Positions 11,740 to 54,357 are shown, numbered from the stretch's first letter. The stretch is 64,000 bases of DNA from Myxococcota bacterium (GCA_965223415.1 OZ245002.1:3968001-4032000); one strand, 5' to 3'. Notes: generated by a model from the letters alone, not told the origin. Program-made: numbers and translations.

Positions 11740-13098
<1,359 letters not shown>

Positions 13099-13149: not shown

Positions 13150-13185
13150 CGCCCATTTAGCTCAAAAGTTGCGAGTCCGTGGGCT

Positions 13186-14421: not shown

Positions 14422-14436
14422 GTCCGTGCTCCCCCC

Positions 14437-28599: not shown

Positions 28600-28605
28600 C
28601 TTGGT

Positions 28606-28880
28606 GGGGATCGCCGTGCCGCGATCCCCCGTTGCCTTGTTCGCCCGGACAGCATCCGCTGCCCGGGCCCTGCATCGAGTGGAGAGCTGGTGGTTCGGAA
28701 CCGCTCAGCTGCGGTGCGGTTCCGGGGGCCAGGGCCCCGGGAGGGAGGAGAGACTGGGGTGCTCCGGAGCGCTTTTCCGAGCCGCGGGGGCACGCCCCCC
28801 AACGATTCCCGCGCGTCTCAGGTCGGCACTCCGGAGACACCCCATCTCTGTTGCCCGGGGGCTTGCGCCGCCCGGGACCC
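28606..28880. other. Highly structured non-coding mraZ-rsmH spacer (candidate cis-regulatory RNA or ncRNA)
   Basis: Nested complementary arms 28735-41/28854-60, 28749-69/28829-49 and 28783-88/28808-13; separate hairpins at 28606-28629 and 28697-28723. Confidence 0.45.
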
Positions 28881-28896
28881 CCCCAATCACTTCCCC

Positions 28897-29343: not shown

Positions 29344-29360
29344 CGCTCGATACCGCCCTT

Positions 29361-29384
29361 CCACTCCATGCCACTTGATGCCAC
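29361..29384 (-). promoter_or_regulatory. MraZ-binding boxes (three GTGG repeats at 10-bp period)
   Basis: Minus strand reads GTGGCATCAA GTGGCATGGA GTGG; on the plus strand CCAC lies at 29361, 29371 and 29381, between the promoter and the mraZ start. Confidence 0.75.
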
Positions 29385-31929: not shown

Positions 31930-32783
31930 GTCTCACTGGAGAGGTCCGGCGCCGCCGCCGGCGTATCGTCAAAAAACTCGGCAAGCGGCTCGTGCGACGG
32001 GCCAGCGACTTCCTGGGCGCCCAATCGGTCGTCGGCACCGAGCCCGTGCTTCTCGCATCGGACTTCCCCGAGCTTGCCGCGCTGCAGGCGGATTGGAAGC
32101 GCGTCCGCGAGGAGCTGGATGGCGTGCTGGCCGACCGCGATCGCCTGCCGCCCCTCCGCGAGCTCTCGCCGGACCAGGCGCGTATCGCGACGGACGATCG
32201 CTGGCGCTCGTTCCCGCTTCACGGCTTCGGCTACCGCGTCGCCCGCAGCTGCGAGCGTTGCCCGGAGACCGCTCGCCTCGTCGAGGCGATTCCTGGCATG
32301 CAGAGCGCCTGGTTCTCGGTAGTCGGCGCTGGCTGCCACGTGCCCTCCCATCGCGGAATCACGCGCGGCATGCTCACCGTTCACCTGGCGCTCCGCGTGC
32401 CCGAGCCTCGGGAGCGATGTCGTATCCGGATCGCCGATCGCGATCACCACTGGCGCGAAGGAGAGCTTCTGATCTTCGACGACACGGTTCCCCACGCGGT
32501 GTGGAACGACACAGACGGCGATCGGGTCGTCCTGCTGATCGACGTGGATCGCCCGATGCGCTGGCCGGGCGGCGTGTTCCACCGGCTGTTCATGGCCGGA
32601 TTCCGCCAGACCGGCTACGTGAAGGACGCCCGGGCGAACTTCGCAGCGTGGGAGCGGAGCTTCTATTCCGAGGCCGGCCCGGAATCCGTCACTGCAAGTA
32701 CCTCACGCTATGCGCCGTCGTCGAGCAGCAGCCGAGCCTCGACTGCGTCCGGAGTGTCGAGTCCCTCCGACAGACGCTCGTAG
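31926..32783 (+). CDS. Aspartyl/asparaginyl beta-hydroxylase-family 2OG-Fe(II) dioxygenase (LpxO/OlsC-like)
   Basis: Motifs CPETARL, HVPSHRG, HLAL.VP, WREGELLIFDDTVPHAVWN and RVVLLID. The 3' end overlaps the convergent gene. Confidence 0.88.
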   Translation: MSLTGEVRRRRRRIVKKLGKRLVRRASDFLGAQSVVGTEPVLLASDFPELAALQADWKRVREELDGVLADRDRLPPLRELSPDQARIATDDRWRSFPLHGFGYRVARSCERCPETARLVEAIPGMQSAWFSVVGAGCHVPSHRGITRGMLTVHLALRVPEPRERCRIRIADRDHHWREGELLIFDDTVPHAVWNDTDGDRVVLLIDVDRPMRWPGGVFHRLFMAGFRQTGYVKDARANFAAWERSFYSEAGPESVTASTSRYAPSSSSSRASTASGVSSPSDRRS

Positions 32784-35700
32784 CGCGGGCGCAGCAGCTC
32801 TTGCCCTTCGCCGCGCGCGCCGCGACGCTGCAGCACGCGGGCCAGGCTCGAGGCCGAACGAAGCGCCAGCGCCGGCGCGTCCTGGGCCTCCGCCAGCTGG
32901 AGCGCCTCGCGCAGCAGGCGCTCGGCCAGGGCGACGTCGGTCGTCTCGCGCAGCTCGGCCTCGATGCGCCGGAGCTCCGGATCCCAGTAGTGCTGCCCCC
33001 TGCGCCGGCCGAGCTGGAGGCCCTGATCCACGGCCTCGAGGGCCGCGTCGACCCTTCCCGCCAGCTCTCTCACCTCGGCGATCATCGCCCACACCATCGG
33101 GCCACCGACGAGCAGACCGGTGGTCCCCAGCAGGGCGGCACCCTGGTCGACCTCGGCGAGGCCTTCTTCGACGCGGCCGCTCGCGGCCGCGGCCCAACCA
33201 CGAGCCACCCGCGTCACCCACTCGATCAGAGGGAAGCGCTGGGTCTGCGCTAGGTCGATAGCCTCGTCGGCCAGGGTCATGCAGGCCGCCGGCTCACGCC
33301 GCAGGAGGTGCACCGTGGCCCCGAAGCCGAGGGCGTAGCCCAGGCTGTAGGGATGGCCGTCGGCGCGACCGAGCTCGAGCGCCCGCTCGCTCCAGCGCTT
33401 GGCCTGATCGGCCTCTCCGAGACACCAGGCGGCGCGCGCACCGAAGACCCGGGTGGCCACCCCCGGGTCCAGCCCGAAGTCGACCGTCAGGTGCGCATGG
33501 CGCTCCGGGTCGTGCAGGGCGACGGCAGAGCCGAATGCCTCCCTGGCGGTGCGCCACGCGCCCATCCAGTAGAACGCCATGCCCCGGGCGAGCAGAGCCT
33601 GAATCATCTGGCCGTCATCGCTGCGCTCGGTGGCGGCCGAGACGAGGTGGCCGCTCAGCTCGAGGGCCGTGTCCAGCTCGCCGCGGCTCTCGAAGAATGC
33701 GCTCGTTCCGCAGAGTGCGCGGAAGACCTGGGGCGCGTCGCCGACCGTTCCGCAGAGCTCACGGGCGCGGGCGTACACCTCGCCGACCTCCGGGCTTGCA
33801 TAGCCCTTGACCGCCACGAGCGGGACGCCCAGATCGACCAGGAGGACCAGCTCCCGGGCGTCACGTTCCGGCGAGGGCGGCAGGCCACGCGTGAGGTCGA
33901 TACCCCGCCGCAGGTGTCCGATGGCCTCCAGGTTCGCCGACCGTGCCACGGCACTGCGCCCGGCCTCCTCGTAGCGGCCGATCGCGGGCTCCGGCAGGCC
34001 TGCTTCCTCGTAGTGGCGGGCGATCACCTCCGGCTCCCCTTGCGCTTGCTCCGGGAACTCCTCCTCGAGGAGACGCGCGATCCGCGCGTGATAGGCCCGG
34101 CGGGTGGAGCGGAGCAGGGACTGGTAGGCGGCGTTCTGGATCAGCGCGTGGCGGAAGCCGTAGCGTCTCGTCCCGGCCCCCCCTTCTTCCTCGATGAGAT
34201 CGGCCTCGATCAGCTGTCCCAACGACGAATCGAGGTCGAGCTCCTCTCGGCGGGTGACCGCGCGCAGCAGCTCTTCCGAGAAGCCGCGGCCGATGACCGC
34301 CGCCACCTGCGCGAGGGTCTTCGCCGGCCCGAGGCGGTCGAGACGCGCGAGGAGCGAGGCATGCAGGGTCGAGGGAATGACGAACTCCCTCGCCGACCCA
34401 CCGCGCCCGTCGGTCCCGGGCACGGCCATGGTCTTCGTCAGCTCCTCGACGAAGAGCGGAACGCCGTCGGTGGTCTCGACCACCCTCTCCTCGACGGCGG
34501 CCGGAAGCGGATGGGCCGCGGCAATGTGCCGGATCATCGACAGGCTCTGCTGCCGAGTGAGGGGAAGGAGGGACAGCCGAGCGATGCTCGAGGAGTCGCC
34601 CAGGGTCAGCGTGCGGCTGGGGCGCGACGTCAGCGCGAGGAGGATCGGATGCTTCGCGATGCGCTCCAGGGCCAGCCCGAGGAGCTCCAGGGTCGAGGGA
34701 TCGGCCCAGTGCAGATCCTCGACGGCCAGCACCAGGGGCTGGCCCTGCGCGCGGGTCAGCAGCCAGGTGATCAGCGCCTCGAGGGTGCGGGCGCGCTCTG
34801 CGTCGGGGCTGAGCGCCGGCGGCTCGGGCTCCCGCTTCTCGGGGAGCGAGAGCAGTCGAGCGAAGAGGGGCAGGGCGTCCGGGTCGATGTCCGCCTCGTC
34901 CAGCTCCCAGCGGAGGCGATCGACGGGTGTCGCGCCGCGACCGCCGGCGTCCTCGCCGATGGCGTCCTGCAGGAGCTCGATGATCGGGTGGAAGGAGGTG
35001 CCGGAGTGGTAGGCGGAGCAGTGGGCCTCCAGCCAGGCGAAGCCACGCCCCAGCGCATGCTCGCGCAGCACCCGTAGCAGGCGGGACTTCCCCATGCCCG
35101 CCTCCGCGGCGATCAGAATCGCCCGCCCGCGCCCGGACAGCACCTGGTCGCAGCGATCGAGCAGGAGATCCACCTCCTGGGTGCGCCCGACGAACGGCGT
35201 GAGATCGCGCTGACCCCCGAGCTTGCGCCGTCCTGGACGCCCGAGCGCCGTTCGGACGCAGAAGGCGGTGACGGGCTCCGCGAGCCCCTTCAGTCGGTGT
35301 TCGCCTCGCTCCTCGATCAGGAAGGCGTCCGCCAGGAGCGCGCGGGTCGTGCCGCTGATCAGGATCTCGCCGGGATGGGCGAGGGTCTCGAGGCGCGCAG
35401 CGACGATCACCGCGTCGCCCATGGCGAGGTTCTCCAGCCGTTCGCCGGCTCCCATTTCGCCCACTACCACGGAGCCAGTGCTGATGGCGACCCGCACCTC
35501 GAGGGGGTGGAGGCCCAGGGCCGGAAGGCGTTCACTCAGGCTGGCGTTCACCGTCGGCAGGATGGCCATCATCCCCAGCGCTGCATCGACCGCACGGATC
35601 GGGTCGTCCTCGTGAGCGACCGGGTAGCCGAAGTAGACGAGGAGGCCATCGCCCAGGTACTGGGCTACGCGTCCGCCGAAGCGCTCGACGACGGGGGCGC

Positions 35701-36007
35701 AGGCGGCTTGGTAGGCGCGCACAGCGGATCGCAGATCCTCCGGGTCCAGCCTCTGGGAGAGCTCGGTCGAGTCCACCAGATCGCAGAACATGGCGGTGAT
35801 GGGCCTCCGCTCGGCGTTGTCCTCGTGGAGGGAGGCCGGGGTCGGCTCTGCGGCCCCGCTGTGAGGCCGGCCGCAGTGAGCGCAGAAGCGGGCACCCCGG
35901 GGAACCGCGGTGCCGCAATGGGTGCACTCGGCGTTCACCGGCGTTCCGCAATGGATGCAGAAGCGCGAGGAGGTCGGAGTGTCGTTGCCGCAATCGGTGC
36001 AGCGCAT
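32708..36007 (-). CDS. Class III adenylate/guanylate cyclase with double zinc ribbon, AAA ATPase and TPR-like domains
   Basis: Four CxxC pairs at the N-terminus; FCDLVDST and YLGDG cyclase motifs; Walker A AEAGMGKS; EDLHWAD; helical C-terminus. Confidence 0.92.
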   Translation of the reverse strand: MRCTDCGNDTPTSSRFCIHCGTPVNAECTHCGTAVPRGARFCAHCGRPHSGAAEPTPASLHEDNAERRPITAMFCDLVDSTELSQRLDPEDLRSAVRAYQAACAPVVERFGGRVAQYLGDGLLVYFGYPVAHEDDPIRAVDAALGMMAILPTVNASLSERLPALGLHPLEVRVAISTGSVVVGEMGAGERLENLAMGDAVIVAARLETLAHPGEILISGTTRALLADAFLIEERGEHRLKGLAEPVTAFCVRTALGRPGRRKLGGQRDLTPFVGRTQEVDLLLDRCDQVLSGRGRAILIAAEAGMGKSRLLRVLREHALGRGFAWLEAHCSAYHSGTSFHPIIELLQDAIGEDAGGRGATPVDRLRWELDEADIDPDALPLFARLLSLPEKREPEPPALSPDAERARTLEALITWLLTRAQGQPLVLAVEDLHWADPSTLELLGLALERIAKHPILLALTSRPSRTLTLGDSSSIARLSLLPLTRQQSLSMIRHIAAAHPLPAAVEERVVETTDGVPLFVEELTKTMAVPGTDGRGGSAREFVIPSTLHASLLARLDRLGPAKTLAQVAAVIGRGFSEELLRAVTRREELDLDSSLGQLIEADLIEEEGGAGTRRYGFRHALIQNAAYQSLLRSTRRAYHARIARLLEEEFPEQAQGEPEVIARHYEEAGLPEPAIGRYEEAGRSAVARSANLEAIGHLRRGIDLTRGLPPSPERDARELVLLVDLGVPLVAVKGYASPEVGEVYARARELCGTVGDAPQVFRALCGTSAFFESRGELDTALELSGHLVSAATERSDDGQMIQALLARGMAFYWMGAWRTAREAFGSAVALHDPERHAHLTVDFGLDPGVATRVFGARAAWCLGEADQAKRWSERALELGRADGHPYSLGYALGFGATVHLLRREPAACMTLADEAIDLAQTQRFPLIEWVTRVARGWAAAASGRVEEGLAEVDQGAALLGTTGLLVGGPMVWAMIAEVRELAGRVDAALEAVDQGLQLGRRRGQHYWDPELRRIEAELRETTDVALAERLLREALQLAEAQDAPALALRSASSLARVLQRRGARGEGQELLRPRYERLSEGLDTPDAVEARLLLDDGA

Positions 36008-36131
36008 GGCGCTTCGGGCTCCCCAGGGAGGATGGGGCAGCGAGGCCGGTCGCGCATCCACTCCATTCGGGGCGGTCCTCTCCCGACGGCGCGGGATATG
36101 CTCTTCGGCCCTGGACGACGGGAGGGGTCTC

Positions 36132-36974
36132 TTGAGCCGTGAGCTCTTCGACCTGTGGAAGCGGCTGCCGCCGGGCCCCAAGCGCTGGCTCCGGCGCAGG
36201 TGGTACGAGGCGATCTCGGCTCTCGATACGGGCCAGCATCTGCTGTTCATGAACCACGGCTTCGCGCCTGCAGATGCAGCGGATTCGCTGGCGCTGTCGG
36301 CCGCTGACGAGCCGCATCGCTTCGCGATCCAGCTCTACGATCGTGTCGCCGATCTCGCTGAGTGGGCGGGGCGCGACGCCCTCGAGGTCGGCTGCGGGCG
36401 CGGCGGTGGAGCGGCGTTCCTGATGCGCACGCGCCGGCCGCGCTCGCTCGTCGCGGTGGATCTCACGGATCGCGCGATCCGCTTCTGCCGCCGCCGTCAC
36501 CGGCTGCCCGGCCTGCGCTTCGAGCGCGCCGATGCCCAGGCGCTGCCGTTCCCCGATGAGCAGTTCGACCTCGTGCTCAACGTCGAGTCGTCCGTCCTCT
36601 ACGAAGATCCGGCCCGCTTCTTCCGTGAGGTGCACCGCGTCCTGCGCCCTGGCGGCCGCTTCCTGTTCGCCGATTCCCGCCGCGCGAGGAAGCTGGCGAC
36701 GCTCCGCACCCAGCTGGCGGCCTCGGGGCTCGCGCCCCTGGAGGAGCACGACATCTCCAAGCAGGTCGTCCACGGGTTGGAGCTCTCGAGCGGGCCGCGC
36801 CGCGAGCTTCTCACCCGGGTCGTGCCGCGACCCCTGCGCGGGCTGTTCCGCCGATTCGCGCACCTGGAAGAAGACGAGCGCGAACGGCGTCTGTTCGAGG
36901 AGGGGCGCAAGATCTATCTCGTCGCCGCGCTGGCCAAGCCCCTGGCCGGCGCGCGGAAAGGAGAGCCCTCATGA
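36132..36974 (+). CDS. Class I SAM-dependent methyltransferase (phthiotriol-methyltransferase-like)
   Basis: GGAGG plus TTG at 36132. Motifs LFMNHGF, LEVGCGRGGG, FDLVLNVESS and LRPGGRF. Confidence 0.85.
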   Translation: MSRELFDLWKRLPPGPKRWLRRRWYEAISALDTGQHLLFMNHGFAPADAADSLALSAADEPHRFAIQLYDRVADLAEWAGRDALEVGCGRGGGAAFLMRTRRPRSLVAVDLTDRAIRFCRRRHRLPGLRFERADAQALPFPDEQFDLVLNVESSVLYEDPARFFREVHRVLRPGGRFLFADSRRARKLATLRTQLAASGLAPLEEHDISKQVVHGLELSSGPRRELLTRVVPRPLRGLFRRFAHLEEDERERRLFEEGRKIYLVAALAKPLAGARKGEPS

Positions 36975-39304: not shown

Positions 39305-40623
39305 CTGCCACAGTGACCGTCGGGCCGGTGGTCGGTGCCCTCACCGACCGCACCGCGCGCGTTCTGGCCGAGGTGGATGACGACGTCTCGGTTTCCGTGA
39401 CGCTGACCGACGCGAACGGCCAGGTGACCGGTTCCGGGCCGCTTCCTCTCGAGGCCCACCGTCCCCAGGTGTTCGCATTCGACGGCCTCGCTCCGGGCAC
39501 CGCCTACACCGTCGGCTTCGTCGGCGCCGCCTCGCCCCAGCCCGGCAGCTTCCGCACGCTCGATTCGCAGCCCACGGTGCTGCGGATCGGGGCGGTCAGC
39601 TGCAACAAGCACGGCGCCGCGGCCGCCTGGCAGGCCGTGCGCGCCGAGGTGGAGACGCTCGATCTGCTGGTTCACGCCGGCGACCAGATCTATCCGTCGC
39701 AAGACCTGTTCGACGAGTCGGTGGCGGACTGGGAAACCATGGGATCCGCGGCCGCGCCGGTGATCCGGGAGCGCTACCGGGAGGTCTACCGAAGCAGCTG
39801 GACGCGGCCGGCCACCCGCGACGTGCTCGCCCACGTACCGAACCTGATGATCTGGGACGACCACGAGGTGCGGAACAACTGGGGCACCCGGGAAGAGGAT
39901 CGCGATTCGGCGACCCCCGGCCACCAGGTCGGCCTCCAGGCCCGGGAGGTCTACCGCGCCTACCAGGGGGCGCTCGCCGGGCCGGTGGGCGCGAACGGCG
40001 AGCACGAGGGGCATCTTCACGTGCAGGGCGAGATGGCCGTGCTCTTCCTGGACCTCCACGGCGCTCGGGCCTTCGCGCCGGACCCCGGGTTTCCTATGCT
40101 GGGCGCCGCGCAGCGCGCGGCGGTGGAGGCCGCCTTCGCTGCTGGCGGCGCGCTCGAGCAGGCTCGCGCGCTCGTGGTCGTGAGCAGCCTGCCGCCCGTC
40201 CTGCTCTCCCCCTGGCTGCTGACGGGTCTCGGCCCGCTGGTGGAGAGCATGAAGGGCCAATGGGCCCACGCCCGCCACCGTCCCGAGCAGCGGTGGCTCC
40301 TCGATCTGCTGCGGAGCTGGCAGGCCGACGGCGACCGGGCGGTCCTCCTGCTTTGCGGGGACCTGCACATCGGCGTGCAGCGCACGGAGATCCGCCACGG
40401 TGGCGAGGTCTTCGAGCAGATGATCTCGAGCCCCATCAGCCACGGCTCGGACCTCTTGGAATACCTGCTGGTGACCGCCGCCCTCCGCGCGCATCGATTC
40501 GAGGGGCAGGGCTTGCGGGTTCGCCATAGCGGCTTCCTGCGCGGGACCCACTACGGCATCGCGACGCTCACCGCACAGCCCGGGGCCCCGGCAGCCGTCT
40601 CGGGCGAGCTGGTCCCCACCTAG
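39301..40623 (+). CDS. PhoD-like metallophosphatase without signal peptide
   Basis: Motifs GAVSCN, HAGDQIY, IWDDHEV and LCGDLH; ATGA-coupled to the ceramidase. Confidence 0.85.
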   Translation: MTATVTVGPVVGALTDRTARVLAEVDDDVSVSVTLTDANGQVTGSGPLPLEAHRPQVFAFDGLAPGTAYTVGFVGAASPQPGSFRTLDSQPTVLRIGAVSCNKHGAAAAWQAVRAEVETLDLLVHAGDQIYPSQDLFDESVADWETMGSAAAPVIRERYREVYRSSWTRPATRDVLAHVPNLMIWDDHEVRNNWGTREEDRDSATPGHQVGLQAREVYRAYQGALAGPVGANGEHEGHLHVQGEMAVLFLDLHGARAFAPDPGFPMLGAAQRAAVEAAFAAGGALEQARALVVVSSLPPVLLSPWLLTGLGPLVESMKGQWAHARHRPEQRWLLDLLRSWQADGDRAVLLLCGDLHIGVQRTEIRHGGEVFEQMISSPISHGSDLLEYLLVTAALRAHRFEGQGLRVRHSGFLRGTHYGIATLTAQPGAPAAVSGELVPT

Positions 40624-41162
40624 GACCGGGTCGGGTCTTCCGGGTCGCCGGTGCTGTTGCGGCGCTCGATCGCTTCGATCACGCGATCGAGCCGCTCGTT
40701 CATCGCGTCGATGTCGGCGCGCGTCGGCACGTCGAGGAGCTTGACGACCCGCTCCATCGTCCGCTGCACCAGCGCCTCGAAGTCCGGCGGGGAGAAGGGC
40801 CTGCGAGCGCTCTCCTCCTCTTCCTCCTCCTGGCCGAGCATCCGGCGCATGTTGCGCTGGAACTCCTCGACGTTCTCCCGGGCGTCGTCGGCGCCCTTGC
40901 GGAGGGCGTCGTAGAGCGCGTCGCCGCCCTTCTGGAACAGCTCCGAGAGCAGGTTGCCCGGCACCGCACGGCCGCCGCGCTCGGTGTCGACGAGGATCTG
41001 CGAGAGCGTGACCGAGGTGATGTCCTCGCCGGTCTCGTTGTCGATCACCTTGACTTCCTGGTCGTTCTCCAGGAGCTCGGCGATACCCTTCAACGTGATG
41101 TAGCGGCTGGTCTCGGTGTTGTAGAGCTTGCGATTGGCGTACCGCTTGATGAGGACGGCCAT
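40620..41162 (-). CDS. PhaR-like polyhydroxyalkanoate synthesis regulator (DNA-binding domain)
   Basis: IKRYANRKLYNTETSRYITL and VIDNETGEDITSVTLSQI; C-terminal VPTRADIDAMNERLDR resembles a phasin-type tail. Confidence 0.85.
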   Translation of the reverse strand: MAVLIKRYANRKLYNTETSRYITLKGIAELLENDQEVKVIDNETGEDITSVTLSQILVDTERGGRAVPGNLLSELFQKGGDALYDALRKGADDARENVEEFQRNMRRMLGQEEEEEESARRPFSPPDFEALVQRTMERVVKLLDVPTRADIDAMNERLDRVIEAIERRNSTGDPEDPTRS

Positions 41163-41261
41163 GGGCTGCTCTGCTCGGCGACGGGGTTCGGACATGGTCC
41201 CCCGGGGTCGGAAGGGGCCGGACGTTAGCAGACGGCCCTGGCCTGTCACCTGCGCCGCGGC

Positions 41262-41753
41262 TCAGCCCTCCACAGCGATCCGCTGCACCTGCGGCGGTGC
41301 CTCCTTCGGCGGCTCGGCCTCCCCGGCGGCGGGGGAGGGTGCTTCCTCCCCCTCCGAGGTGCGCACACCGAGCTCCCACAGCAGCTCCCGGACCCCGAGG
41401 AAGGCACGCAGCACCGAACGGGCCTCGGGCTCCTGCCGGCTGCGCGCCTCCCATCGGCCGATCTCGGCGTCGAGGGCCTCTGCCACGGTTCGCAGCAGGG
41501 CGGCTCCGTCCTTGACGGCGTCCGGCTCGACCCAGCGGCGGAGCGCCGTGAGGCCCTCGCCCAGGCCGGCCGCCGGTGTCTCGGCGGCGACCTGGCCGGT
41601 GGCGGCGAGGGTGGCCGCGTCCAGCAGGGCCGCGAGGGCGGCAGCGCTCTCGGCGGCCGCACGCTGGGCGTGGCTGCGGGCGCGGCGGAGGGCCTCCTGG
41701 GCGTCGGCCGGCGGCTCTTCCGGCGGGATTCCCGCGGCTTCGTCGTCGCTCAT
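41262..41753 (-). CDS. Hypothetical helical protein
   Basis: ATGA-coupled to the upstream ArsA-like gene; ends VQRIAVEG. Confidence 0.6.
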   Translation of the reverse strand: MSDDEAAGIPPEEPPADAQEALRRARSHAQRAAAESAAALAALLDAATLAATGQVAAETPAAGLGEGLTALRRWVEPDAVKDGAALLRTVAEALDAEIGRWEARSRQEPEARSVLRAFLGVRELLWELGVRTSEGEEAPSPAAGEAEPPKEAPPQVQRIAVEG

Positions 41754-42934
41754 GGCAGGGAGCTCTCCGTTCCGGGTTCGAACAGGGCCGACTCGATGCG
41801 GCCCAGGGTGTCGAGATCGTGAACGTCGCGGGGCAGCTGCGGCACGCGTCGCACGAAGGCGTCCGCCTTGGCTGCCCAGCGCAGGAGCGGTGCCGTGGCT
41901 TCCGCATCCCTGTGCACGCGACGAGCGTAGCTGCCGACACAGTGCCGCGCCGTCCGCGCCGCCGCGCCGACCTGCGCCGGATCGAGACCACGCTCGGCGA
42001 GCGCGCGCCCCAGCGCCTCCCAGGCCGCGGGCGCCGCGGGCTCGAACGCCTCGAGCTCCGGGTCGAGGTGCAGGCGGTTCAGGATCACGCCCCGCGTCGC
42101 CGCGCCGAGCCCGTCGAGGCGCTGGGCCAGAGCGACGGCCTGGTCGACCTGTCCCCGTCCCGCGCCTGCCGCGAGCACGAAGGCGGTGGTGCCGCCAAAG
42201 AGCAGCTCGCGCACGTGATCGGCCCGGGCGCGGAAGCCCTCGGACAGCTCTTCGAACAGCAGCAGGAACTCCGACAGGTCCTCGAGGAAGGCCATGCCCG
42301 ACACCCGCTCGAGCAGGCGGAAGAGCGGCTCGGTGCCCTTCTGGAAGAGGCGCAGCCCGAAGCGGCCGGCACTCATCGCCGGGTGCACCAGGTGGCGGGC
42401 GATGCGGCTGTCGACCAGGCCGACCAGGCGCTCCGGCGCCTCCAGGAAATCGAGCGCGTGCTGGGACGGCGGCGTGTCGAGCACCACGACGTCGAAGCCG
42501 CCGGCGGCCACCAGCTCGTCGACCTTCTCCATGGCCGAGTACTCGCTGCTGCCCGCCAGGGCGTCGGAGACGTGCTGATAGATGGGGTTGGAGAAGATGC
42601 GATCGCGGGTGGCGTCGTCCCGTGCGAAGCGGTGCACGAGATCGTCGAAGGTGCGTTTCGTGTCGAGCATCATGGCGGAGAGCGAGCCCGGCGCGAGATC
42701 CAGCCGGGCGAGGATCTCCGCCGGCAGGGCCTCCGGCTCCGGTCCGAGGCGCGGGAGGCCCATGGCGTCGGCCAGGCGCTTGGCGGGATCGATGGTCAGC
42801 ACGAGGGCGCGGGCGCCGCGCCGGGCCGCGCCCAGGGCGAGGGCGGCGGAGAGGGTCGTCTTGCCGACACCCCCGGAGCCGACGCAGGCGACGATCGGGT
42901 GCTCCTCGAGCAGGCGGGCGGGGGTGGCGCTCAC
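41750..42934 (-). CDS. ArsA/Get3-like ATPase (Rv3680-like subunit)
   Basis: Motifs CVGSGGVGKTT, TIDPAKRLADAMG, MLDTKRTFD and VLDTPPS. Confidence 0.9.
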   Translation of the reverse strand: MSATPARLLEEHPIVACVGSGGVGKTTLSAALALGAARRGARALVLTIDPAKRLADAMGLPRLGPEPEALPAEILARLDLAPGSLSAMMLDTKRTFDDLVHRFARDDATRDRIFSNPIYQHVSDALAGSSEYSAMEKVDELVAAGGFDVVVLDTPPSQHALDFLEAPERLVGLVDSRIARHLVHPAMSAGRFGLRLFQKGTEPLFRLLERVSGMAFLEDLSEFLLLFEELSEGFRARADHVRELLFGGTTAFVLAAGAGRGQVDQAVALAQRLDGLGAATRGVILNRLHLDPELEAFEPAAPAAWEALGRALAERGLDPAQVGAAARTARHCVGSYARRVHRDAEATAPLLRWAAKADAFVRRVPQLPRDVHDLDTLGRIESALFEPGTESSLP

Positions 42935-43896
42935 GCTCCTGGCTCCGCGGGGCCCAGCAGCTCCTCCGCCAGTTCGGCCAGCGCCGCCGTGCCGGCTCCG
43001 GCCATGTCCCGGTAGGGGAGCAGGACGATCGGGAGGTCCGCGTCTTTGCGGAGATCCGCCACCGCCTCCCGGTGCATCGCGGCTCGCTCGCGCAGGTGGG
43101 CGACGCAGCGCGCCAGGCTGGCCGGGGAGGGCAGGCCCTCCGGCGCTGCGGGAAGCGCGGCCAGACGCTCCGGGAGATCGGCGAGCGCGGCGGGCAGCGG
43201 GTTCGCCTCGGCGGCGTTCACCACGATGCGGTCCATCGCGATGCCCACCTCCGCTCGCGCTCGGGCCACGAGCTCGAGGGTCTCGTTGACCGGAAGCTCC
43301 TCGGGCAAGGTGACCGGCAGCAGCAGCGTCCGCTCCGGGTCGCGGACCATCTCCTCCACCCAGCCGGCGTGGCGCCGCAGCGGGCCAGCGCGCACGGCGG
43401 AGACCACGACCCGCGGCACGTCCAGGAACGTGAGGCCGTGGCCGGTCGCCGGGGCGTCGACGATCAGGAGGTCGATGCGATCCGGGGCTTCGGGCGGCGG
43501 CTGCAGCAGGTGCCACACCTTGCCGAGCGTGATCAGCTCCCGCCAACCCGGCGCGGCGTCGAGCAGCGCGTGGAACCCGGGCTGGTCCAGCAGCCGGGTC
43601 ACCAGGCCGGGGATCCGCAGCTGGAGGTGGAGGTACTCGGCGAGTGCGGCGTAGGGCTCCATCCTCCGGACGACCGGGCCGCAGGCCAGGCGCCGGCCCG
43701 TGTAGCCCACCGGCGGCAGCGGGTCGCCCAGCAGGCGCGGCAGCTCTTCGTCCCGCCCGGTCTCGATGGCGCACACCCGCAGGCCCCGGGCCGCCGCACC
43801 CAGGGCGAGGGCGCCAGTGACGGTGGTCTTGCCCGTGCCGCCCTTGCCGGTCACCACGATCAGGCGTCGTTCGAGCAGGGGGCGGAGCTGCGCCAA
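42931..43896 (-). CDS. ArsA/Get3-like ATPase (Rv3679-like subunit)
   Basis: Motifs VTGKGGTGKTT, VDAPATGH and LPEELPVNET. Start codon (TTG) uncertain. Confidence 0.88.
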   Translation of the reverse strand: MAQLRPLLERRLIVVTGKGGTGKTTVTGALALGAAARGLRVCAIETGRDEELPRLLGDPLPPVGYTGRRLACGPVVRRMEPYAALAEYLHLQLRIPGLVTRLLDQPGFHALLDAAPGWRELITLGKVWHLLQPPPEAPDRIDLLIVDAPATGHGLTFLDVPRVVVSAVRAGPLRRHAGWVEEMVRDPERTLLLPVTLPEELPVNETLELVARARAEVGIAMDRIVVNAAEANPLPAALADLPERLAALPAAPEGLPSPASLARCVAHLRERAAMHREAVADLRKDADLPIVLLPYRDMAGAGTAALAELAEELLGPAEPGA

Positions 43897-44128
43897 GCGG
43901 GGCCTCGTGAGAGTGCGGCCGTCGCGCCTCCTCCCCCCGAAACCTGCCCCCCTCGGGGCCAGCCGGGGGGGCTCAAGCACCCCTTCGGCGGAGCCGAAAC
44001 GAAGCGCGGAGACCTGGAGCGACGGATGGCTGGCGAGGAGGGCGGCCCGCGGTGGATGGGAGCGCACGGACCTGCGCCGTTGAGGCGCGCACACTAGCAG
44101 CAATCCGGGCCGGAGGGCGCCCGCCGCG

Positions 44129-45406
44129 ATGATCCTCGCCTGCCAGCAGTGCCAGACCCGCTTCCGGCTCGACGAGGCGCGCATTCCCTCCGAAGGCGCG
44201 CGGGTGCGCTGCTCCAAATGCAACCACGCCTTCACCGTGCGCCCGCCGGAGGTCGACCCGGAGGTGACCTTCGACGGTGTGGTGGCCGAGGCGGTGGAGG
44301 AGGCGATCCCGGCACCGGAGCCCGGCGCCGGCGCGGCTGGCCCCGAGCACACGGACCCGGGCCTCAGCGAGGCCCTGGAGCCGGTCGGCGAGGTCCCGCC
44401 GGACCAGTGGACCTTCAGCGACGAGGCGCCGGTCGATGCGGCCGACACCTCCCCGGCGTCCGGCCTGTTCGGCACCTCGGACGACCTGGTCGGCGATTCG
44501 GCCGGGGCCCGCGCCGCGGAGCCCCTCCCGGGCACGAACCCGGACGATCCGCTGGAGGCCCTGGCCCGCGAGGTGGCCGCCGAGAAGGGCGCCGCCCCGC
44601 CGCAGGCCGAGCCGAAGCCCGCGCCCGCCCCGCCGCAGGCCAAGCCGAAGCCCACGCCCGCCCCGCCGCAGGCCAAGCCCGCGGCGGCCCCGTCGCCCGC
44701 GCCGGCCGAGGCCTCCACGGCCGGCGCGAACACCCTGGACGGCCTCGGCGACCCGGCGGAGTGGGACTTCCTGGCGGATTCGGTCCCCGAAACCCCGGTC
44801 GAGGCCCGGGTCGAGCCCCCGCCCGTGGCGGCAGGGGCCGTGGAGGCGGCGCCGGCCCGCCCGGGCTGGGTTCTGCCACCCGCGCTCGCGTCCCTACTCT
44901 CCCGGCTGGGAGGCGCCGCGGGCTGGGCGGGCGCGGTGGGCTTGATCCTGGTCGGGCTGGCGCAGGTCCTGTGGCCGGCCCCGGTGGCCACCACGTCGCC
45001 GGCCCCCCTTCAGCTGGTGCGAGGCGATCCCGAGGTGCGCGGGCTCAGCTCCCGCCACCTCGAGAACCTCCACGGAGGGGCCATGCTCGTCGTGGGCGGA
45101 GAGGTTGCGGCCCGCAGCGCTGGCCCCGACGGCCTGCGGGTGCAGCTCCTCGACGCCGCCGGTCGCCCGCTCGAGGGGGGACGGGCCTGGGCGGGCCCCC
45201 CGCTGGGCGAGCGGGTCCTTCGCGAGCTGGACCCGGATCGCATCCGCGCGCGGCTGCAGGACGAGAGCCCGGCGCTGCGGCCCGGCGGCCTGTTCCACGC
45301 GGTGTTCCCGTCGCCTCCGGTCGGCGCAAGGGGCGTGGCGGTCATGGCCGCGGCGCTGCCTAGGGAGCCTCGTCTCCCTCCGTCACCTTCTCCGGCTCCG
45401 GAGTGA
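44129..45406 (+). CDS. MJ0042-type zinc-ribbon membrane protein (DUF3426-like)
   Basis: [32 protein letters not shown], followed by an acidic Pro/Ala linker, one TM and a C-terminal domain. Confidence 0.8.
44594..44680 (+). repeat. 33-bp coding tandem repeat (about 2.6 copies)
   Basis: GCCCCGCCGCAGGCC begins at 44594, 44627 and 44660; the unit encodes APPQA(E/K)PKP(A/T)P. Confidence 0.85.
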
Positions 45407-49804: not shown

Positions 49805-50401
49805 CTAGCGGGCCAGGAGCACCCGCCGGGCCCGGTAGAGGTGCGACTTCACCGAGTCCTCGCTCTTCGCGGTCATCCCGGCGATCTCCTGGATCGAGCG
49901 ATCCTCGAGGTGGTGCAGGCGGAAGAGCTTCCACTGCTCCGGCGACAGGTCCTGGCGGGCGGCCGCGGACAACCGGTCGAGACGCTCGAGGTACTCGTAG
50001 TCTTCGTGGGGGCTGGTCCCACTGTGGCCCGCGGGGCCGAGGTACTGATCGTCCTCGGGAAGCGGAACCGTGTCGTGGCGCTTGCGCTTGAACCGGGAGG
50101 CGATGGTGCGGCGGGTCAGGCCGAACACCCAGGCGGCAAAGGGCGCCTCGCCGCGGAAGGAGTGGAGGGAGGAGAAGAGGTTGAAGAAGACCTCCTGGAC
50201 GATCTCCTCGGTGTCGGCCCGGTTGCTCACGCGGCGATCGACGAAGCGATAGACGCGGGGGAAGTAGCGGGCGTACAACAGCTCGAAGGGGGCGCGGTCG
50301 CCCTCGGCGACTCGCGCGACGAGCTGCTCGTCGGTGGCCTGGGCCAATGCGTTCCCAGCGATCTTCGGCCCGGCCGCGGGCTCGGCGTTCGGCGCTGCCA
50401 T
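49805..50401 (-). CDS. ECF RNA polymerase sigma factor
   Basis: DEQLVARVAEGDRAPFELLY, EEIVQEVF, FRGEAPFAAWVF; region 4 SIQEIA...SVKSHLYRAR. Start codon uncertain. Confidence 0.9.
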   Translation of the reverse strand: MAAPNAEPAAGPKIAGNALAQATDEQLVARVAEGDRAPFELLYARYFPRVYRFVDRRVSNRADTEEIVQEVFFNLFSSLHSFRGEAPFAAWVFGLTRRTIASRFKRKRHDTVPLPEDDQYLGPAGHSGTSPHEDYEYLERLDRLSAAARQDLSPEQWKLFRLHHLEDRSIQEIAGMTAKSEDSVKSHLYRARRVLLAR

Positions 50402-50504
50402 GGTCTCCCTTCCCATTGTGCCAGGCTGTCCCAGAACAGCCTCCCCCGTCATGGGAAGTGACCGGCCCCACGCGTCGGGTGTCAAAGAATGTCACCCCAC
50501 AGCG

Positions 50505-50529
50505 AAAAAAAGTGCGGGGTTACCCCCGC
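50505..50529 (-). terminator. Intrinsic terminator ending the ParA-CBM operon
   Basis: Minus strand GCGGGG-GTAA-CCCCGC-AC-TTTTTTT: a GC stem with a GNRA loop followed by a U7 tract. Confidence 0.75.
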
Positions 50530-50564
50530 GGGGGAGGGGTTCAGGGGCCGGGGTGGGTGGCGGG

Positions 50565-51086
50565 CTAGAGATCGCCGTCTCGAAGGCGGCTGCGGAACCG
50601 GAAGGCGCCGGCCGGCCCCTGGCCGCGGGGCTCCTGGCGCGGCGGGTTCGGCTCCGGCGCCGCACGCCCCGGATCCTCGGCGACCAGGAGGGCGCCCGCC
50701 GGCGTCCGCACTAGCCTCCACAGCTCGATCCTCCCCGAGCCGCCGCCGGCCGCCAGCCGGGTGCGCTCCTCGAACCGCTCGGCGACCAGCAGGGCCCGCG
50801 GGCGCAGGGAAGGGTCCAGCCGGCGTTCGGGGGCGAGCTGGGCCCAGTCCGCGATCCGCGGCGCGAGCCAGGAGAGCTCGCCCACCAGGGCGGCCCAGGT
50901 CTCGAGATCGCGGCCCGGGGCTGCCGGCTGCACCAGTCCCACGCGGCCCTCGGGATCCCGCACGACGTAGGCGATGCGGCCGGCGCCGCCGAGCAGGTTC
51001 CGGGCCACCACCTCGAGGGGCGTGGGCAGCGCAAGCAGGGCCGGGCGCAGGTCGTCCGTCGGCGGGGCCAGGGGCACGGCGCTCAA
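50565..51086 (-). CDS. Hypothetical protein, possibly a degenerate NucS/PD-(D/E)XK fold
   Basis: TTG start overlaps the upstream stop. GRIAYVVRDPEGRVGLV...WL...RALLVAERF resembles the NucS-like pattern but lacks the catalytic D and ExK. Confidence 0.5.
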   Translation of the reverse strand: MSAVPLAPPTDDLRPALLALPTPLEVVARNLLGGAGRIAYVVRDPEGRVGLVQPAAPGRDLETWAALVGELSWLAPRIADWAQLAPERRLDPSLRPRALLVAERFEERTRLAAGGGSGRIELWRLVRTPAGALLVAEDPGRAAPEPNPPRQEPRGQGPAGAFRFRSRLRDGDL

Positions 51087-51853
51087 TGCAGGTCGTCGCG
51101 CAGGAGCAGGGCGACGTCGCGCAGGGCCCGCGCCGCCCGCGTGCAGCCGAAGCCCTCGCCGCGGGCGGGACCCTCGACCAGGGACCGGGCCAGCTCGAGC
51201 TCGTCGACCAGCAGGCCGTAGCTCGTGAGCGGGCGCTCGAAACGGGCGGCGAAGAGCTCCGCCAGCCCGTCGAACACGCCCCGGGCCTCGGCCAGGGTCT
51301 CGGCACCGCGCACCGTCACGCCTACCTGGGCGCGGGGAGCGGCGCTCAGCACTCGTTCGCAGAGCTCGAGGAACTCGCGCCGATCCGCGTCGGAGGCGCC
51401 GGCCACCAGCCAGCAGCGGGAGAAGAGCTGCGTGTGGGCGTCGTTCCAGGTGCGGTCCGACGGCACGTGGACCAGCACCACCGACCCGCTCTCCTGCGGG
51501 AGGGTGGCCGCCGCGTCGGCGGCGGCGCCGAGGAGCGGCCCGACGTCGCCGGCGGGGAGCGGCACCCAGGTCGGCGCAAAGGCCTCGCAGGCGAGGTCCA
51601 GCCACGCCGAGTGCTCGGGCTGCGGCTCGGGCGCCAGGAGGGTCGGCGCCCGTCCGAGGGCGCGCATCTCGGCCGCCAGGCTCCACAGGAGGGCGGTGCG
51701 GATCGGGTCCCGGGGATGGAGCGGCGCGGCCACGATCGGGCAGGGCTCCGCCTTCCCCGGTTCCTCTCTCCGGCCCGGGGGCTGGGAGGCGTCGTCCAGG
51801 AAGTAGTGGAGGACCTCGCCGAGCTCGCGGGCCACGGCTAGTCCCGATCCCAC
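51083..51853 (-). CDS. Degenerate MinD/FlhG-like protein (no Walker A)
   Basis: C-terminal FDGLAELFAARFERPLTSYGLLVDELELARSLVEG...AARALRDVA resembles FlhG/MinD; no GKT motif. Confidence 0.55.
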   Translation of the reverse strand: MGSGLAVARELGEVLHYFLDDASQPPGRREEPGKAEPCPIVAAPLHPRDPIRTALLWSLAAEMRALGRAPTLLAPEPQPEHSAWLDLACEAFAPTWVPLPAGDVGPLLGAAADAAATLPQESGSVVLVHVPSDRTWNDAHTQLFSRCWLVAGASDADRREFLELCERVLSAAPRAQVGVTVRGAETLAEARGVFDGLAELFAARFERPLTSYGLLVDELELARSLVEGPARGEGFGCTRAARALRDVALLLRDDLH

Positions 51854-51911
51854 ATCGAAGGGGAGCGCCGGCCCAGAGCCACGGCACGTCGAGAGCGATG
51901 CCGGATCACGG

Positions 51912-53000
51912 TCAGCTTACGACCAGGACGGAGTTTCGGCCTCCCACCGGGCCCGGCACGGCGTTGGGGTTGTCCGGATCCTCTCGCCACTCGCCGTCGA
52001 CCACGTAGCGGTAATGGTAGGTGCCGGGCGGCAGGTTCAGGATCTTCGTCCAGACCCGCTCGGCCCCCTCTGCCTGGACGAGGGAACGCACGTCCTTGTC
52101 CGGGACCCAGCCGTTGAAATCGCCGGCGATGCGCACGTCAGTGGCCCCCGGATCGCGGTAGCGCACGACCACCTCGCGGCCGCTGCCCGCCGCCTCCGGG
52201 CGAAGCTCCTCGCGCAGGGCGGGAGGCGGTTCGGCCAGGGACAGCTCCAGGGCGAGGGCCGCGTAGTCGCGGGTGCCGTTGGCCGTGCGCGCGAAGGACC
52301 CGATGGGCTGGCCGCGGCGGGCGGCCTCGCGCAGCTTGACGTTCGAGCGGATCACCGTGTCGAAGCAGAGGTCGCCGAACAACGAACGGATCTCCGCCAG
52401 CGTGTCCCGGGCGTAGCGGGTACGCCCGTCGTAGAGGGTGGGCAGGATGCGCACCGAGAGCTCGTGGCCGATGCGGTCGGAGAGCAGCGCGATCGTCTCC
52501 AGCAGCTTCTGCACGCCGTGGATGGCGAAGTCGCTGGTCTCCAGCGGGACGAGCACCTCCCCCGCGGCGCGCAACGCGTTGAAGGTGAGTACGCCCACGT
52601 TCGGCGGGCAGTCGATCAGCACGAAGTCGTAGTCGTCCCGGACGCTGGCCAGCGCGGCTTCCAGCCGCTCGGTGCGGCGCTCGGCCCGCTCGGCGGTGAG
52701 CTTCTGCTCGAGGGCCGAGAGCACGATGCCCGAGGGCGCCAGGTGGAGCGCGTCGCTCCAGGCCTGGATCACGTCCGCAAGGCGACCGGCGGCCGGCGAG
52801 CCCACGGGCTCCACCAGCACCTCGTACAGGTTCTCGTCCAGCGCCTCGGGGTCGTAGCCCAGGGCCAGAGTGGCGTGGGCCTGGGGGTCCATGTCGACCA
52901 CCAGCACCCGGGCGTCGGCGGCCAGCGCCCCCGCCAGGTTCACGGCAGTGGTGGTCTTCCCGCAACCGCCCTTCTGGTTGACGATGGCGACGATGCGCAT
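51912..53000 (-). CDS. ParA/Soj ATPase fused to a C-terminal AMPK-beta/CBM48-like carbohydrate-binding domain
   Basis: ParA motifs NQKGGCGKTT, DMDPQAHAT, IDCPP and IRSNVKLREA; then VRIAGDFNGW...LPPGTYHYRYVVDGEWREDPDNP...GGRNSVL. Confidence 0.92.
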   Translation of the reverse strand: MRIVAIVNQKGGCGKTTTAVNLAGALAADARVLVVDMDPQAHATLALGYDPEALDENLYEVLVEPVGSPAAGRLADVIQAWSDALHLAPSGIVLSALEQKLTAERAERRTERLEAALASVRDDYDFVLIDCPPNVGVLTFNALRAAGEVLVPLETSDFAIHGVQKLLETIALLSDRIGHELSVRILPTLYDGRTRYARDTLAEIRSLFGDLCFDTVIRSNVKLREAARRGQPIGSFARTANGTRDYAALALELSLAEPPPALREELRPEAAGSGREVVVRYRDPGATDVRIAGDFNGWVPDKDVRSLVQAEGAERVWTKILNLPPGTYHYRYVVDGEWREDPDNPNAVPGPVGGRNSVLVVS

Positions 53001-53075
53001 GAGCGGTCACCTCCTGACGAGGGCACTCGGAGGAAGGACCGGGGATGGGATCGGACCGGGGAGTCGCTGGGGCTG

Positions 53076-53104
53076 AAAGTAAACGCGACTGTGTAGGCCG
53101 TCAA
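53076..53104 (-). promoter_or_regulatory. Sigma-70-type promoter of the ParA-CBM operon
   Basis: Minus-strand TTGACG-N17-TACTTT in the divergent intergenic region. Confidence 0.6.
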
Positions 53105-53208
53105 CTCCGAAACCCCTGGAAGATCGCCGCCTTCGGGGGTTTTCTGCGAATGGGGTTGGAGCTTCGCCCGGGTTCGCCGCCTCTTGGGCCGTGCGGTAGC
53201 TTGGCTCG

Positions 53209-54357
53209 GTGGCGGACTCCAAGGCCAAGCCCCGAGATACCCGGACCTGGGTCGAAGATCCCCAGGGCCGGCGCCCCTTCATGCGGGGCATCATGATCCA
53301 CTCCCTGATGTCCCGGGGTGCCGACTTCGATGACGCCTACCGGGTGGCGTCGCAGATTCGCGACCAGCTGCGGGGCACCGAGCGGATCGGCCGGGACGAG
53401 CTGGCCGCCCTGATCGAGGATCACTTCCCCGGCAGTCTCGAGGAGCGGCCCCTGGCGATCGCGCCCGAGATCCAGGTCACCGGTGGGCGGGAGCCGACAC
53501 CGTTCTCCAAGGGCGTGCTCTCGGGCTCGCTCCTCGCCGCCGCCATCGAGCCCGAGCAGGCCCACGACGTGGGCCGGGAGATCGAGGCCGCGTTGGTGGC
53601 CCGCGGTGAGCCCTTCGTCGAGCGGGCCGAGATCCGCGCCCTGGCCGCCGAGACCCTCTCCAGGCGGCTCGGCGCGCGGGTCGCCGGGCGCTACCTGGCC
53701 TGGCGTTCGTTCCTGGATTCGGAGCGCCCCCTGATCCTGCTGCTGGCCGGGACCGCCGGCGTGGGCAAGAGCTCCCTGGCCCAGGCCGTCGCCCACCGGC
53801 TGGGCATCGCCGGCGTCACCTCGACGGACGCCATTCGCCAGGTGATGCGCATCATGCTCGGGCCCGAGCTCGTACCGGCGATCCACGCCTCCTCCTACGA
53901 CGCCCACAAGGTCGTCGTGCGCTCGGAGCAGGCCGACGATCCGGTGATCGACGCCTTCCGCGCCCAGGCCGCGACGGTCTCCGTCGGCGCCCGGGCGATG
54001 ATCGAGCGCGCCATCGAGGAGGGCACGAACCTGATCCTGGACGGCGTGGCCGTGCTCCCGGACCTCATCGACGTGTCCCAGTACGGCGATCGCGCCCATG
54101 TGGTCTTCCTCACCGTCGCCACGCTCGAAGAAAAGGCCTTCAGCAAGCGATTCGAGACGCGGGCGCGGGATGCCGCCGCGCGGCCGCCGCATCGCTACCT
54201 CGGCAACCTCGCGGCCATCCTGCGGATCCAGGACCACATCCTGGAGCTGGCGGAACAGCAGGACGTGCCGATCGTCGACAACGTCGACTTCGACGCCTCG
54301 GTGCGCTCGATCCTGCGTCACGTCACCGAGAGCCTCCGCAAGCAGGTGGGCTCGTGA
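53209..54357 (+). CDS. 2-phosphoglycerate kinase-like protein with tandem ATP-cone-like domains
   Basis: ATP-cone-like starts PFMRGIMIHSL and PFSKGVLSGSL; Walker A GTAGVGKS; STDAIRQVMR, IHASSY and ILRIQDHI. Confidence 0.8.
   Translation: MADSKAKPRDTRTWVEDPQGRRPFMRGIMIHSLMSRGADFDDAYRVASQIRDQLRGTERIGRDELAALIEDHFPGSLEERPLAIAPEIQVTGGREPTPFSKGVLSGSLLAAAIEPEQAHDVGREIEAALVARGEPFVERAEIRALAAETLSRRLGARVAGRYLAWRSFLDSERPLILLLAGTAGVGKSSLAQAVAHRLGIAGVTSTDAIRQVMRIMLGPELVPAIHASSYDAHKVVVRSEQADDPVIDAFRAQAATVSVGARAMIERAIEEGTNLILDGVAVLPDLIDVSQYGDRAHVVFLTVATLEEKAFSKRFETRARDAAARPPHRYLGNLAAILRIQDHILELAEQQDVPIVDNVDFDASVRSILRHVTESLRKQVGS

Follow-up and report, generated by a model that had tools for sequence, protein, structure and literature searches.

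ParA/MinD-type ATPases are, to our knowledge, a general bacterial means of placing large cargos, and in every case known to us the cargo is reached through a separate adaptor. In the McdAB, ParC/ParP, PomXYZ and MipZ systems, an adaptor protein on the cargo both recruits and stimulates the ParA-type ATPase. For storage granules, PhaM/PhaF-type proteins, which are not ATPases, tether polyhydroxybutyrate (PHB) granules to the nucleoid so that they are inherited evenly. Here we describe a trio of co-directional genes in a 64,000-nucleotide (nt) stretch of a Myxococcota bacterium genome (GCA_965223415.1 OZ245002.1:3968001-4032000; hereafter the window, whose coordinates are used throughout). The trio spans positions 50565–53000 on the minus strand and encodes a ParA ATPase fused to a carbohydrate-binding module (CBM), followed by two proteins that we call g2 and g3. 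We tentatively read it as a lineage-wide ParA/MinD-type ATP-switch module with its own alpha-glucan domain, which would tether glycogen to the nucleoid with an avidity set by ATP-dependent dimerisation, and we give this reading somewhat less than an even chance.

Set beside McdAB, ParC/ParP, PomXYZ and MipZ, the trio likewise has a ParA-type ATPase, seemingly used for a purpose other than DNA, next to small, fast-evolving partners. Unlike those systems, the only recognisable cargo-type domain is fused to ParA itself, and the partners are ParA/MinD-like (g2) and nuclease-like (g3). Chromosomal ParABS is the nearest relative of the ATPase domain, which matches M. xanthus ParA (8RAY), H. pylori Soj (HpSoj) and T. 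thermophilus Soj (TtSoj) best and keeps Walker A, the DxDPQ motif and Walker B intact; the fusion departs from it in carrying a C-terminal CBM, in having no ParB domain within the 64-kb window, and in having pseudo-enzymes as partners where ParABS has a CTPase clamp. In its anatomy the trio is a ParA/MinD-type module, with an intact ATP switch and fast-evolving partners that bear near-invariant terminal peptides. Relatives were gathered as 80 loci by a genome scan with a g2 alignment, nearly all of them labelled as Myxococcota or Deltaproteobacteria metagenome-assembled genomes (MAGs), and residue conservation in ParA and the CBM was counted over 77 sequences, namely the window and 76 loci.

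The parA-CBM gene (51912–53000, minus strand) has a Shine-Dalgarno sequence rated good (GGAGGTG) and encodes 362 amino acids (aa). Its ParA/Soj-type ATPase domain, residues 1 to ~252 (52245–53000), is recognised by PDB sequence matches and by Pfam as AAA_31 (4.7e-49) and CbiA (9.7e-21), both above their cut-offs, and the gene product falls below every NCBIfam equivalog cut-off. The best PDB sequence match of the domain, at 1.4e-41, is 8RAY, identified as M. xanthus chromosomal ParA in the data-availability passage of PMC12462528. It is followed by a mycobacterial ParA-like protein, HpSoj (2.7e-38) and TtSoj (5.8e-37), with McdA also among the matches at 3e-14. Bit scores against the M. xanthus, Mycobacterium, Helicobacter and Thermus proteins are nearly equal (146–131 bits), and we therefore read the fusion ATPase as a paralogue and not as the chromosomal ParA of the lineage itself. 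In the deviant Walker A motif, NQKGGCGKTT, residues K10, G11, G12, C13, K15, T16 and T17 are present in 77/77 sequences and G14 in 73/77, while D36, D38, P39 and Q40 of Motif 2 (DxDPQ) and D130 of Walker B are invariant in all 77. Motif 2 reads DPQAHAT here, compared with DPQANAT in HpSoj and APQGNA in the M. xanthus ParA structure, a D60A crystal variant. By its motifs, then, the ParA of the fusion is catalytically intact. We also observe a Cys in Walker A (C13) and another in the DCPP of Walker B (C131), each in 77/77 sequences; the aligned PDB ParA/Soj proteins have Val at the first position, and the two could possibly be a candidate redox-sensitive pair near the nucleotide.

DNA binding by the fusion is plausible from the alignment. 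K222 corresponds to K230 of HpSoj and to the Arg of the PRNVRLSE segment in M. xanthus ParA, which would be R238 if the chain-to-residue offset that we deduced is right. An R238E form of M. xanthus ParA appears in passages of PMC12462528, and we take it to be the DNA-binding-deficient form. Further basic residues conserved in the ParA alignment (R195, R218 and R224) lie near this region.

A Pro/Ala/Glu-rich linker, residues ~253–274 (52179–52244), which is variable in length and unconserved in the ParA alignment, connects the ATPase to an AMPK-beta-type CBM of the CBM48 family at residues 275–362 (51915–52178). Pfam AMPK1_CBM (PF16561) matches residues 277–348 at 2.4e-13, with 50.5 bits against a cut-off of 26.8, and CBM_48 (PF02922) matches at 9e-4 with 19.9 bits, below its cut-off of 22.4. 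PDB sequence matches for residues 275–362 are the AMPK beta1/beta2 CBM (2e-8), SEX4 (7e-5) and LSF1 (6e-4). The sequence-only reading of this DNA that preceded our analysis had called the protein an intact ParA/Soj fused to an AMPK-beta/CBM48-like domain; the KGGCGKTT, GDFNGW and YRYVVDGEW motifs on which it drew are all present, the latter two within the CBM, and the profile matches bear it out. W298 (FNxW), R331, W338 (DGxW) and N356 line up with CBM residues of AMPK, SEX4 and LSF1, and they are kept in 72/77, 73/77, 72/77 and 66/77 sequences, respectively, the misses being mainly sequences that have no CBM. We take these four to be the equivalents of the AMPK beta1 sugar contacts W100, K126, W133 and N150, with AMPK K126 replaced by Arg in the window CBM. 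W99 of beta2 is named as a key residue of the AMPK CBM in a passage of PMC4650587. Judged on sequence, the fusion truly ends in a CBM of the AMPK-beta/SEX4 type, and because the putative contact residues are conserved this module is very likely a real alpha-glucan binder. Where it differs from its relatives is in what it is attached to: AMPK beta, SEX4 and LSF1, which share the aligned and conserved FNxW and DGxW tryptophans and the Asn, carry the module on a kinase scaffold or a phosphatase, whereas here it sits on a ParA ATPase, with binding predicted.

The fusion is widespread. Of 1444 candidates from a search with the CBM region, 1028 proteins match at E<=1e-3; both ParA-type Pfam families occur together with PF16561, in a protein of ~361–364 aa, in 116 of the best 120 matches. 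The remaining four of the best 120 are three N-terminally truncated fragments of the same fusion and one probable chimera. In the latter, P0171 (307 aa, from a 1.9-kb contig), a response-regulator receiver is fused with the C-terminal half of ParA-CBM, and we set it aside as probably an assembly chimera rather than a second switch-plus-CBM protein. Database names for the fusion are limited to 'AAA family ATPase', 'chromosome partitioning protein' and 'glycogen-binding domain-containing protein'.

The second gene, g2 (51083–51835 or 51853, minus strand), encodes an FlhG/MinD-fold pseudo-ATPase. By homology, the GTG at 51835 is more likely to be the true start than 51853: it yields a protein of 250 aa, as in the database entry of the same protein, and places the conserved peptide ARELGEVLHYFL (~51794–51832) at the extreme N-terminus. 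There is no Pfam or NCBIfam match to g2, for which 84 homologues were found. Its AlphaFold model (predicted local distance difference test, pLDDT, 84.7) ends in a helix at 239–255 and was matched by Foldseek to FlhG (1.8e-8), FleN (3.4e-7) and MinD (1.4e-6), and also to Soj and ParF; in all, 116 PDB matches reach E<=1e-3. The g2 family profile also finds FlhG by sequence, at 4e-10 over the C-terminal half. FlhG/FleN/MinD proteins are thus like g2 in fold and, in the case of FlhG, in detectable homology of the C-terminal half, and we take FlhG to carry a conserved N-terminal peptide ahead of its ATPase fold, as g2 does. They are unlike it in that g2 has no Walker A motif and no flagellar or Min genes lie nearby. 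The absence of Walker A is complete: GK[ST] occurs in 0/80 family members anywhere in the sequence, the P-loop position reading PIG(D/E)RDVVRAA instead, and g2 therefore cannot be an ATP switch. What the family does keep is its N-terminal motif, [PA]-R-D-L-x-D-V-L-[HD]-Y-F-L-P, found strictly in 63/80 members and as close variants in 15 more (it is degenerate in loci L060 and L062), followed by a disordered linker of variable length. The sequence-only reading had described a MinD/FlhG-like protein with no Walker A and a short N-terminal peptide, and all three elements of that description hold.

The third protein, g3 (50565–51086, minus strand, with a TTG start at 51086), is a small protein whose assignment as PD-(D/E)XK / NucS-C-like is made at the level of fold and is weakly supported. 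Neither Pfam nor NCBIfam matches it, and its profile found nothing credible among PDB sequences. Its model (pLDDT 87.2) has an alpha-beta-beta-beta-alpha-beta core, for which the best PDB folds are EndoMS/NucS (5GKE and 2VLD), weakly, at E 2.2e-3 and a template-modelling (TM) score of 0.35–0.41, with 0 matches at E<=1e-3. The next fold matches, SfsA, PaqCI, SduA and Card1, are all PD-(D/E)XK proteins, and in a protein-language-model atlas g3 has as a neighbour a cluster with NucS_C on 23% of its members. Pfam NucS_C itself (PF01939) is found in 0/29 g3 members, even at E<=1. The family is large, comprising 704 representative clusters at E<=1e-3 and, at 50% identity, 181 at E<=1e-30; the best 150 matches of the representative search are all close relatives, and none of 120 listed homologues carries a Pfam domain, all being named 'hypothetical'. 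From its sequence pattern, g3 appears to lack the catalytic D...(D/E)-x-K signature: in the second strand, an Asp (the D39 column) present in >90% of members is Ala in the window, and the third strand reads V-L-V-G at the place expected for E-x-K, these positions being taken from the alignment and the strands of the model. Like NucS/EndoMS, g3 combines a nuclease-fold domain, a disordered linker and a conserved C-terminal peptide; it has one globular domain only, and therefore the N-terminal NucS domain is absent. The sequence-only reading had proposed a NucS-like fold lacking catalytic residues, and the loss of E-x-K by position agrees with it, whereas the fold itself is the one assignment that did not firm up among those for which it had asked for confirmation, the ParA, AMPK-beta-type CBM and FlhG/MinD assignments having been upheld by Pfam, PDB sequence matches and Foldseek.

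As in g2, the most conserved feature of g3 is terminal. A disordered linker leads to the C-terminal motif F-R-[TS]-G-L-x-D-x-D-L-G-L-T-x-E-E-R-x-E-F-E, which is present in 70/77 sequences, and in 3 of the 7 misses the end of the locus cuts the sequence. The window protein ends in the partial motif FRSRLRDGDL within a disordered tail (50568–50597, minus strand): here and in L001, g3 stops after the first 10 of the 21 motif residues, and these same two loci have no MerR-type gene. Short terminal peptides on disordered linkers are the usual design of ParA/MinD partner proteins.

The three genes travel together. ParA lies directly upstream of g2 in 77/77 testable loci (those with >=1300 bp upstream), the CBM is present in 74/77, and g3 follows g2 in 72/76 testable loci (>=700 bp downstream), no match being found in L024, L034, L046 and L053. 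In the window, the spacing from parA-CBM to g2 is 76 nt and the start of g3 overlaps the g2 stop by 4 nt; across related loci the ParA–g2 gap has a median of 16 nt, and the g2–g3 overlap is 8 nt in 63/75. ParA has a median identity to the window of 72% and the CBM one of 72–74%, compared with 33% for g2 and 35% for g3. The wider neighbourhood is also syntenic, with a 2-phosphoglycerate-kinase-like gene in 73 of the 80 loci, an extracytoplasmic function (ECF) sigma factor in 69, a hydrolase in 58 and a DsbA-like gene in 57, so gene order alone is weak evidence. In one locus, L066, the flanks are unrelated (methionine synthase, carboxylesterase and a Ser/Thr kinase) and ParA-g2-g3 is kept. The joint conservation, whose absence the sequence-only reading would have counted against it, is real, in the 77/77 loci for ParA, the 72/76 for g3, and in L066. 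Among L004, L021, L022, L024, L035, L044, L057, L065, L075 and L078, some carry Spirochaetales, Gammaproteobacteria or Opitutales labels; these are probably wrong, because the loci show full Myxococcota-type synteny and place among Myxococcota in the ParA tree. As far as seen, the module occurs only in Myxococcota that are mostly uncultured and have been little studied.

A fourth gene belongs to most of these clusters. A MerR_1-type helix-turn-helix (HTH) gene of ~160–180 aa lies directly 5′ of parA on the same strand in 70/77 relatives with upstream sequence (for example L003:6329-6790, L004:6223-6705 and L009:895-1389, and 67 more loci), and it is absent at parA in the window, L001, L002, L046, L053, L063, L066 and L072. 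Nor was there a credible tblastn match to it anywhere in the window (best E 0.098). Its product has a conserved beta-rich C-terminal part and PDB sequence matches to GlnR/TnrA, Alr3614, RacA (5e-5) and CarH, and it may regulate the module or serve in it as a DNA-binding component. Since most relatives have this gene, the trio of the window is a reduced form of a four-gene cluster.

Three loci, L066, L067 and L070, have the ParA without the CBM and retain g2, g3 and their terminal peptides. In a tree of the ATPase domain built by a quick maximum-likelihood method, L066 and the pair L067 and L070 nest inside CBM-bearing clades, such that two changes are needed, and it follows that the conserved core is ParA-g2-g3 and does not include the CBM. 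In three other loci, L045, L079 and L080, the ParA open reading frame (ORF) is shorter (302, 338 and 281 aa) and a CBM match lies just downstream; these are probably frameshifts or MAG assembly errors, not true losses of the CBM.

In the mechanism that we infer, which takes in glucan binding, DNA binding, peptide–ParA contact and cellular function, ATP-bound ParA-CBM would dimerise and bind the nucleoid non-specifically. The dimer would display two CBMs on flexible linkers of ~20–35 residues, giving it a higher avidity for a glycogen particle than the monomer has. Granules would thereby be tethered to the nucleoid, spread over it and inherited by both daughter cells, conceptually the outcome achieved by PhaM/PhaF proteins, which likewise keep storage granules on the nucleoid and to which we claim no homology. 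A tether switched by ATP-dependent dimerisation would be the most economical mechanism, by analogy with MinD: as we see it, the CBM parallels the C-terminal membrane-targeting helix of MinD, each being an appendage that binds a matrix and would do so with greater avidity once ATP induces dimerisation. The nucleotide-dead g2 and g3, with its apparently dead PD-(D/E)XK-like fold, would serve as partners: through their terminal peptides they would engage the ParA dimer, thereby controlling ATP hydrolysis and release. A peptide described for ParA in passages of PMC12462528 forms a short helix that binds at the interface of the ParA dimer, and the g2 and g3 peptides share its general make-up. Because of this resemblance, and because the peptides persist where the CBM has been lost, they would be expected to address the ATPase domain. 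The near-invariant peptides on disordered linkers thus agree with the earlier suggestion that the dead paralogues act as modulators, and their contact with ParA is the conjectural part of it.

Several observations weigh against this reading. In the canonical diffusion ratchet it is the cargo that carries the ATPase activator; there is no sign of glycogen binding by g2 or g3, and Pfam/NCBIfam scans found no carbohydrate-binding domain in either. The CBM is the only link of the unit to glycogen: there are no glycogen-metabolism genes in the 64-kb window or among flank families common to >=3/80 loci (singletons being unannotated). On at least two occasions the CBM has disappeared from loci that keep g2 and g3, and so it is dispensable for whatever ParA-g2-g3 does. 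The basic patch through which HpSoj binds DNA, given as K199/K227/K230/K247 in a passage of PMC6393308, aligns with R198, S219, K222 and T239, only 2/4 of which are basic. According to a passage of PMC4650587, moreover, the AMPK CBM binds the kinase domain; CBMs of this type can also be protein-docking modules.

Part of this evidence would suit a different role for the CBM, as a sensor. ParA-g2-g3 would then position or regulate some other target (a g2–g3 assembly, a chromosomal site or the division plane), with the activity or localisation of ParA depending on glycogen or malto-oligosaccharide status. The persistence of the core after at least two CBM losses (L066, and L067 with L070), the retention there of partner-type peptides, which evidently do not need the CBM, and the lack of glycogen genes nearby, both in the window and in the shared flank families, are all as such a sensor would have it; carbohydrate on the AMPK CBM, in turn, modulates its interaction with the kinase domain (passage in PMC4650587). 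However, no candidate for another cargo was identified, and the long flexible linker and very high conservation of the CBM would suit a tether equally well, so that we regard a sensor as the main rival, and a serious one, possible but on the unlikely side. The fold of g3 and the MerR-type gene bring up a further option, in which g3 and/or the upstream MerR-type protein marks a DNA site that ParA moves or anchors and the CBM-like domain is a protein-interaction module. That the g3 fold is nearest to the DNA-binding PD-(D/E)XK proteins NucS/EndoMS, SfsA and PaqCI, that the MerR_1 HTH gene stands directly 5′ of parA in 70/77 and matches the chromosome anchor RacA at 5e-5, and that the ParA domain is Soj-like all point this way. 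Yet the putative sugar contacts are kept in 66–73/77 sequences, which pure protein docking would not need; the window, L001, L066 and four others have no MerR gene at parA; PDB structures match the g3 fold weakly (none at E<=1e-3), making DNA binding by g3 putative; and the two intergenic stretches hold no repeated or palindromic candidate site. We consider this DNA-directed role improbable.

It could also be asked whether the genes are neighbours through lineage-wide synteny only, with unrelated functions, given that the flanks are syntenic in the 80 loci as well (the 2-phosphoglycerate-kinase-like gene in 73, the ECF sigma factor in 69). This seems very improbable, as L066 keeps ParA-g2-g3 without any usual flank gene, g2 and g3 overlap by 8 nt in 63/75 loci with a median ParA–g2 gap of 16 nt, and g2 itself has a ParA/MinD-family fold. 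The glycogen-positioning reading of the trio, to which we return, is plausible on the sequence evidence. Its most specific form, a first dedicated bacterial system for positioning or partitioning glycogen granules and a first ParA with the cargo domain built in, in which dimerisation enables bivalent glycogen and nucleoid binding, and two pseudo-enzymes control the ATPase through terminal peptides, is an attractive but doubtful proposition when all its parts are taken together.

The signals around the trio lie in DNA of 68–76% G+C across the window. Upstream of parA-CBM, a candidate promoter-like site read from the sequence, TTGACG-N17-TACTTT (53076–53104, minus strand), was missed by a sigma-70 consensus scan, which found no promoter; the scan did not accept the site because its -10 hexamer matches at 3/6 positions only. 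It recurs only in the nearest relative, L001 (2/78 upstream regions). Downstream, 36 nt past the g3 stop, the intrinsic-terminator-like hairpin GCGGGG-GTAA-CCCCGC followed by T7 (50504–50529, minus strand) has six G-C pairs; the terminator scan found 1 hairpin, compared with 0.6 expected in shuffles. Neither Rfam, within 50300–53400, nor a search of two intergenic stretches for inverted repeats and repeated or palindromic candidate sites gave any match. The earlier description of a discrete three-gene unit with its own promoter and terminator is thus sound for the genes and the hairpin; the promoter is present as sequence but has a poor -10 element, and the unit is the reduced state of a MerR-containing cluster. 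The same description noted that the window has no parB, and the Pfam scan of window ORFs turned up no ParB-type domain, the gene 3′ of parA being g2.

Divergent from parA-CBM lies the 2-phosphoglycerate-kinase-like gene with an ATP-cone (53209–54357, plus strand), found by Pfam/NCBIfam scan and below the NCBIfam cut-offs (304.9 bits vs 343). After it come an M48 peptidase, a MoxR/ChlI-like AAA+ gene and a gene with a von Willebrand factor A (VWA) domain. Downstream of the trio, the domain scan places an ECF sigma factor at 49805–50485. Farther away, ~22 kb from the ParA-g2-g3 module, is a division/cell-wall cluster at 11740–29364 (minus strand) that looks complete, with mraZ, mraW, ftsI, mur ligases, mraY, ftsW, murG, murB, ftsQ, ftsA and ftsZ. 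At 32708–36250 (minus strand) is a gene for a 1180-aa protein with double zinc ribbons, an adenylate/guanylate cyclase domain, AAA_16 and a MalT-like tetratricopeptide-repeat region. A gene for a PhaR-type regulator of PHB accumulation (40620–41249, minus strand) adjoins a 163-aa ORF and two tandem ArsA/Get3-like ATPase ORFs within 41750–44994 (minus strand), a second pair of SIMIBI-type ATPases, this one beside a storage-granule regulator. The same ArsA-like family occurs in 14 related loci and PhaR in 6.

Full-text searches of the open literature (subscription-only papers lying outside their scope) found no description of a ParA-CBM, ParA-glycogen or other dedicated glycogen-positioning system, in keeping with the statement of the sequence-only reading that no characterised system of this kind was known. 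To that reading our analysis adds the terminal peptides of g2 and g3, the MerR-type gene in 70/77 relatives, the at least two losses of the CBM and the lack of nearby glycogen genes. If the tethering mechanism is true, the ParA/MinD placement principle would extend to a storage polysaccharide, and would do so with a different wiring, the cargo being bound in cis and the partners being pseudo-enzymes. The family concerned is large, with at least 1028 protein clusters matching the CBM region. If the CBM is instead a sensor, the module would still link carbon-storage status to a spatial ATPase, a bacterial echo of glycogen sensing by AMPK. Either way, the trio may be how these Myxococcota place or sense their glycogen stores.

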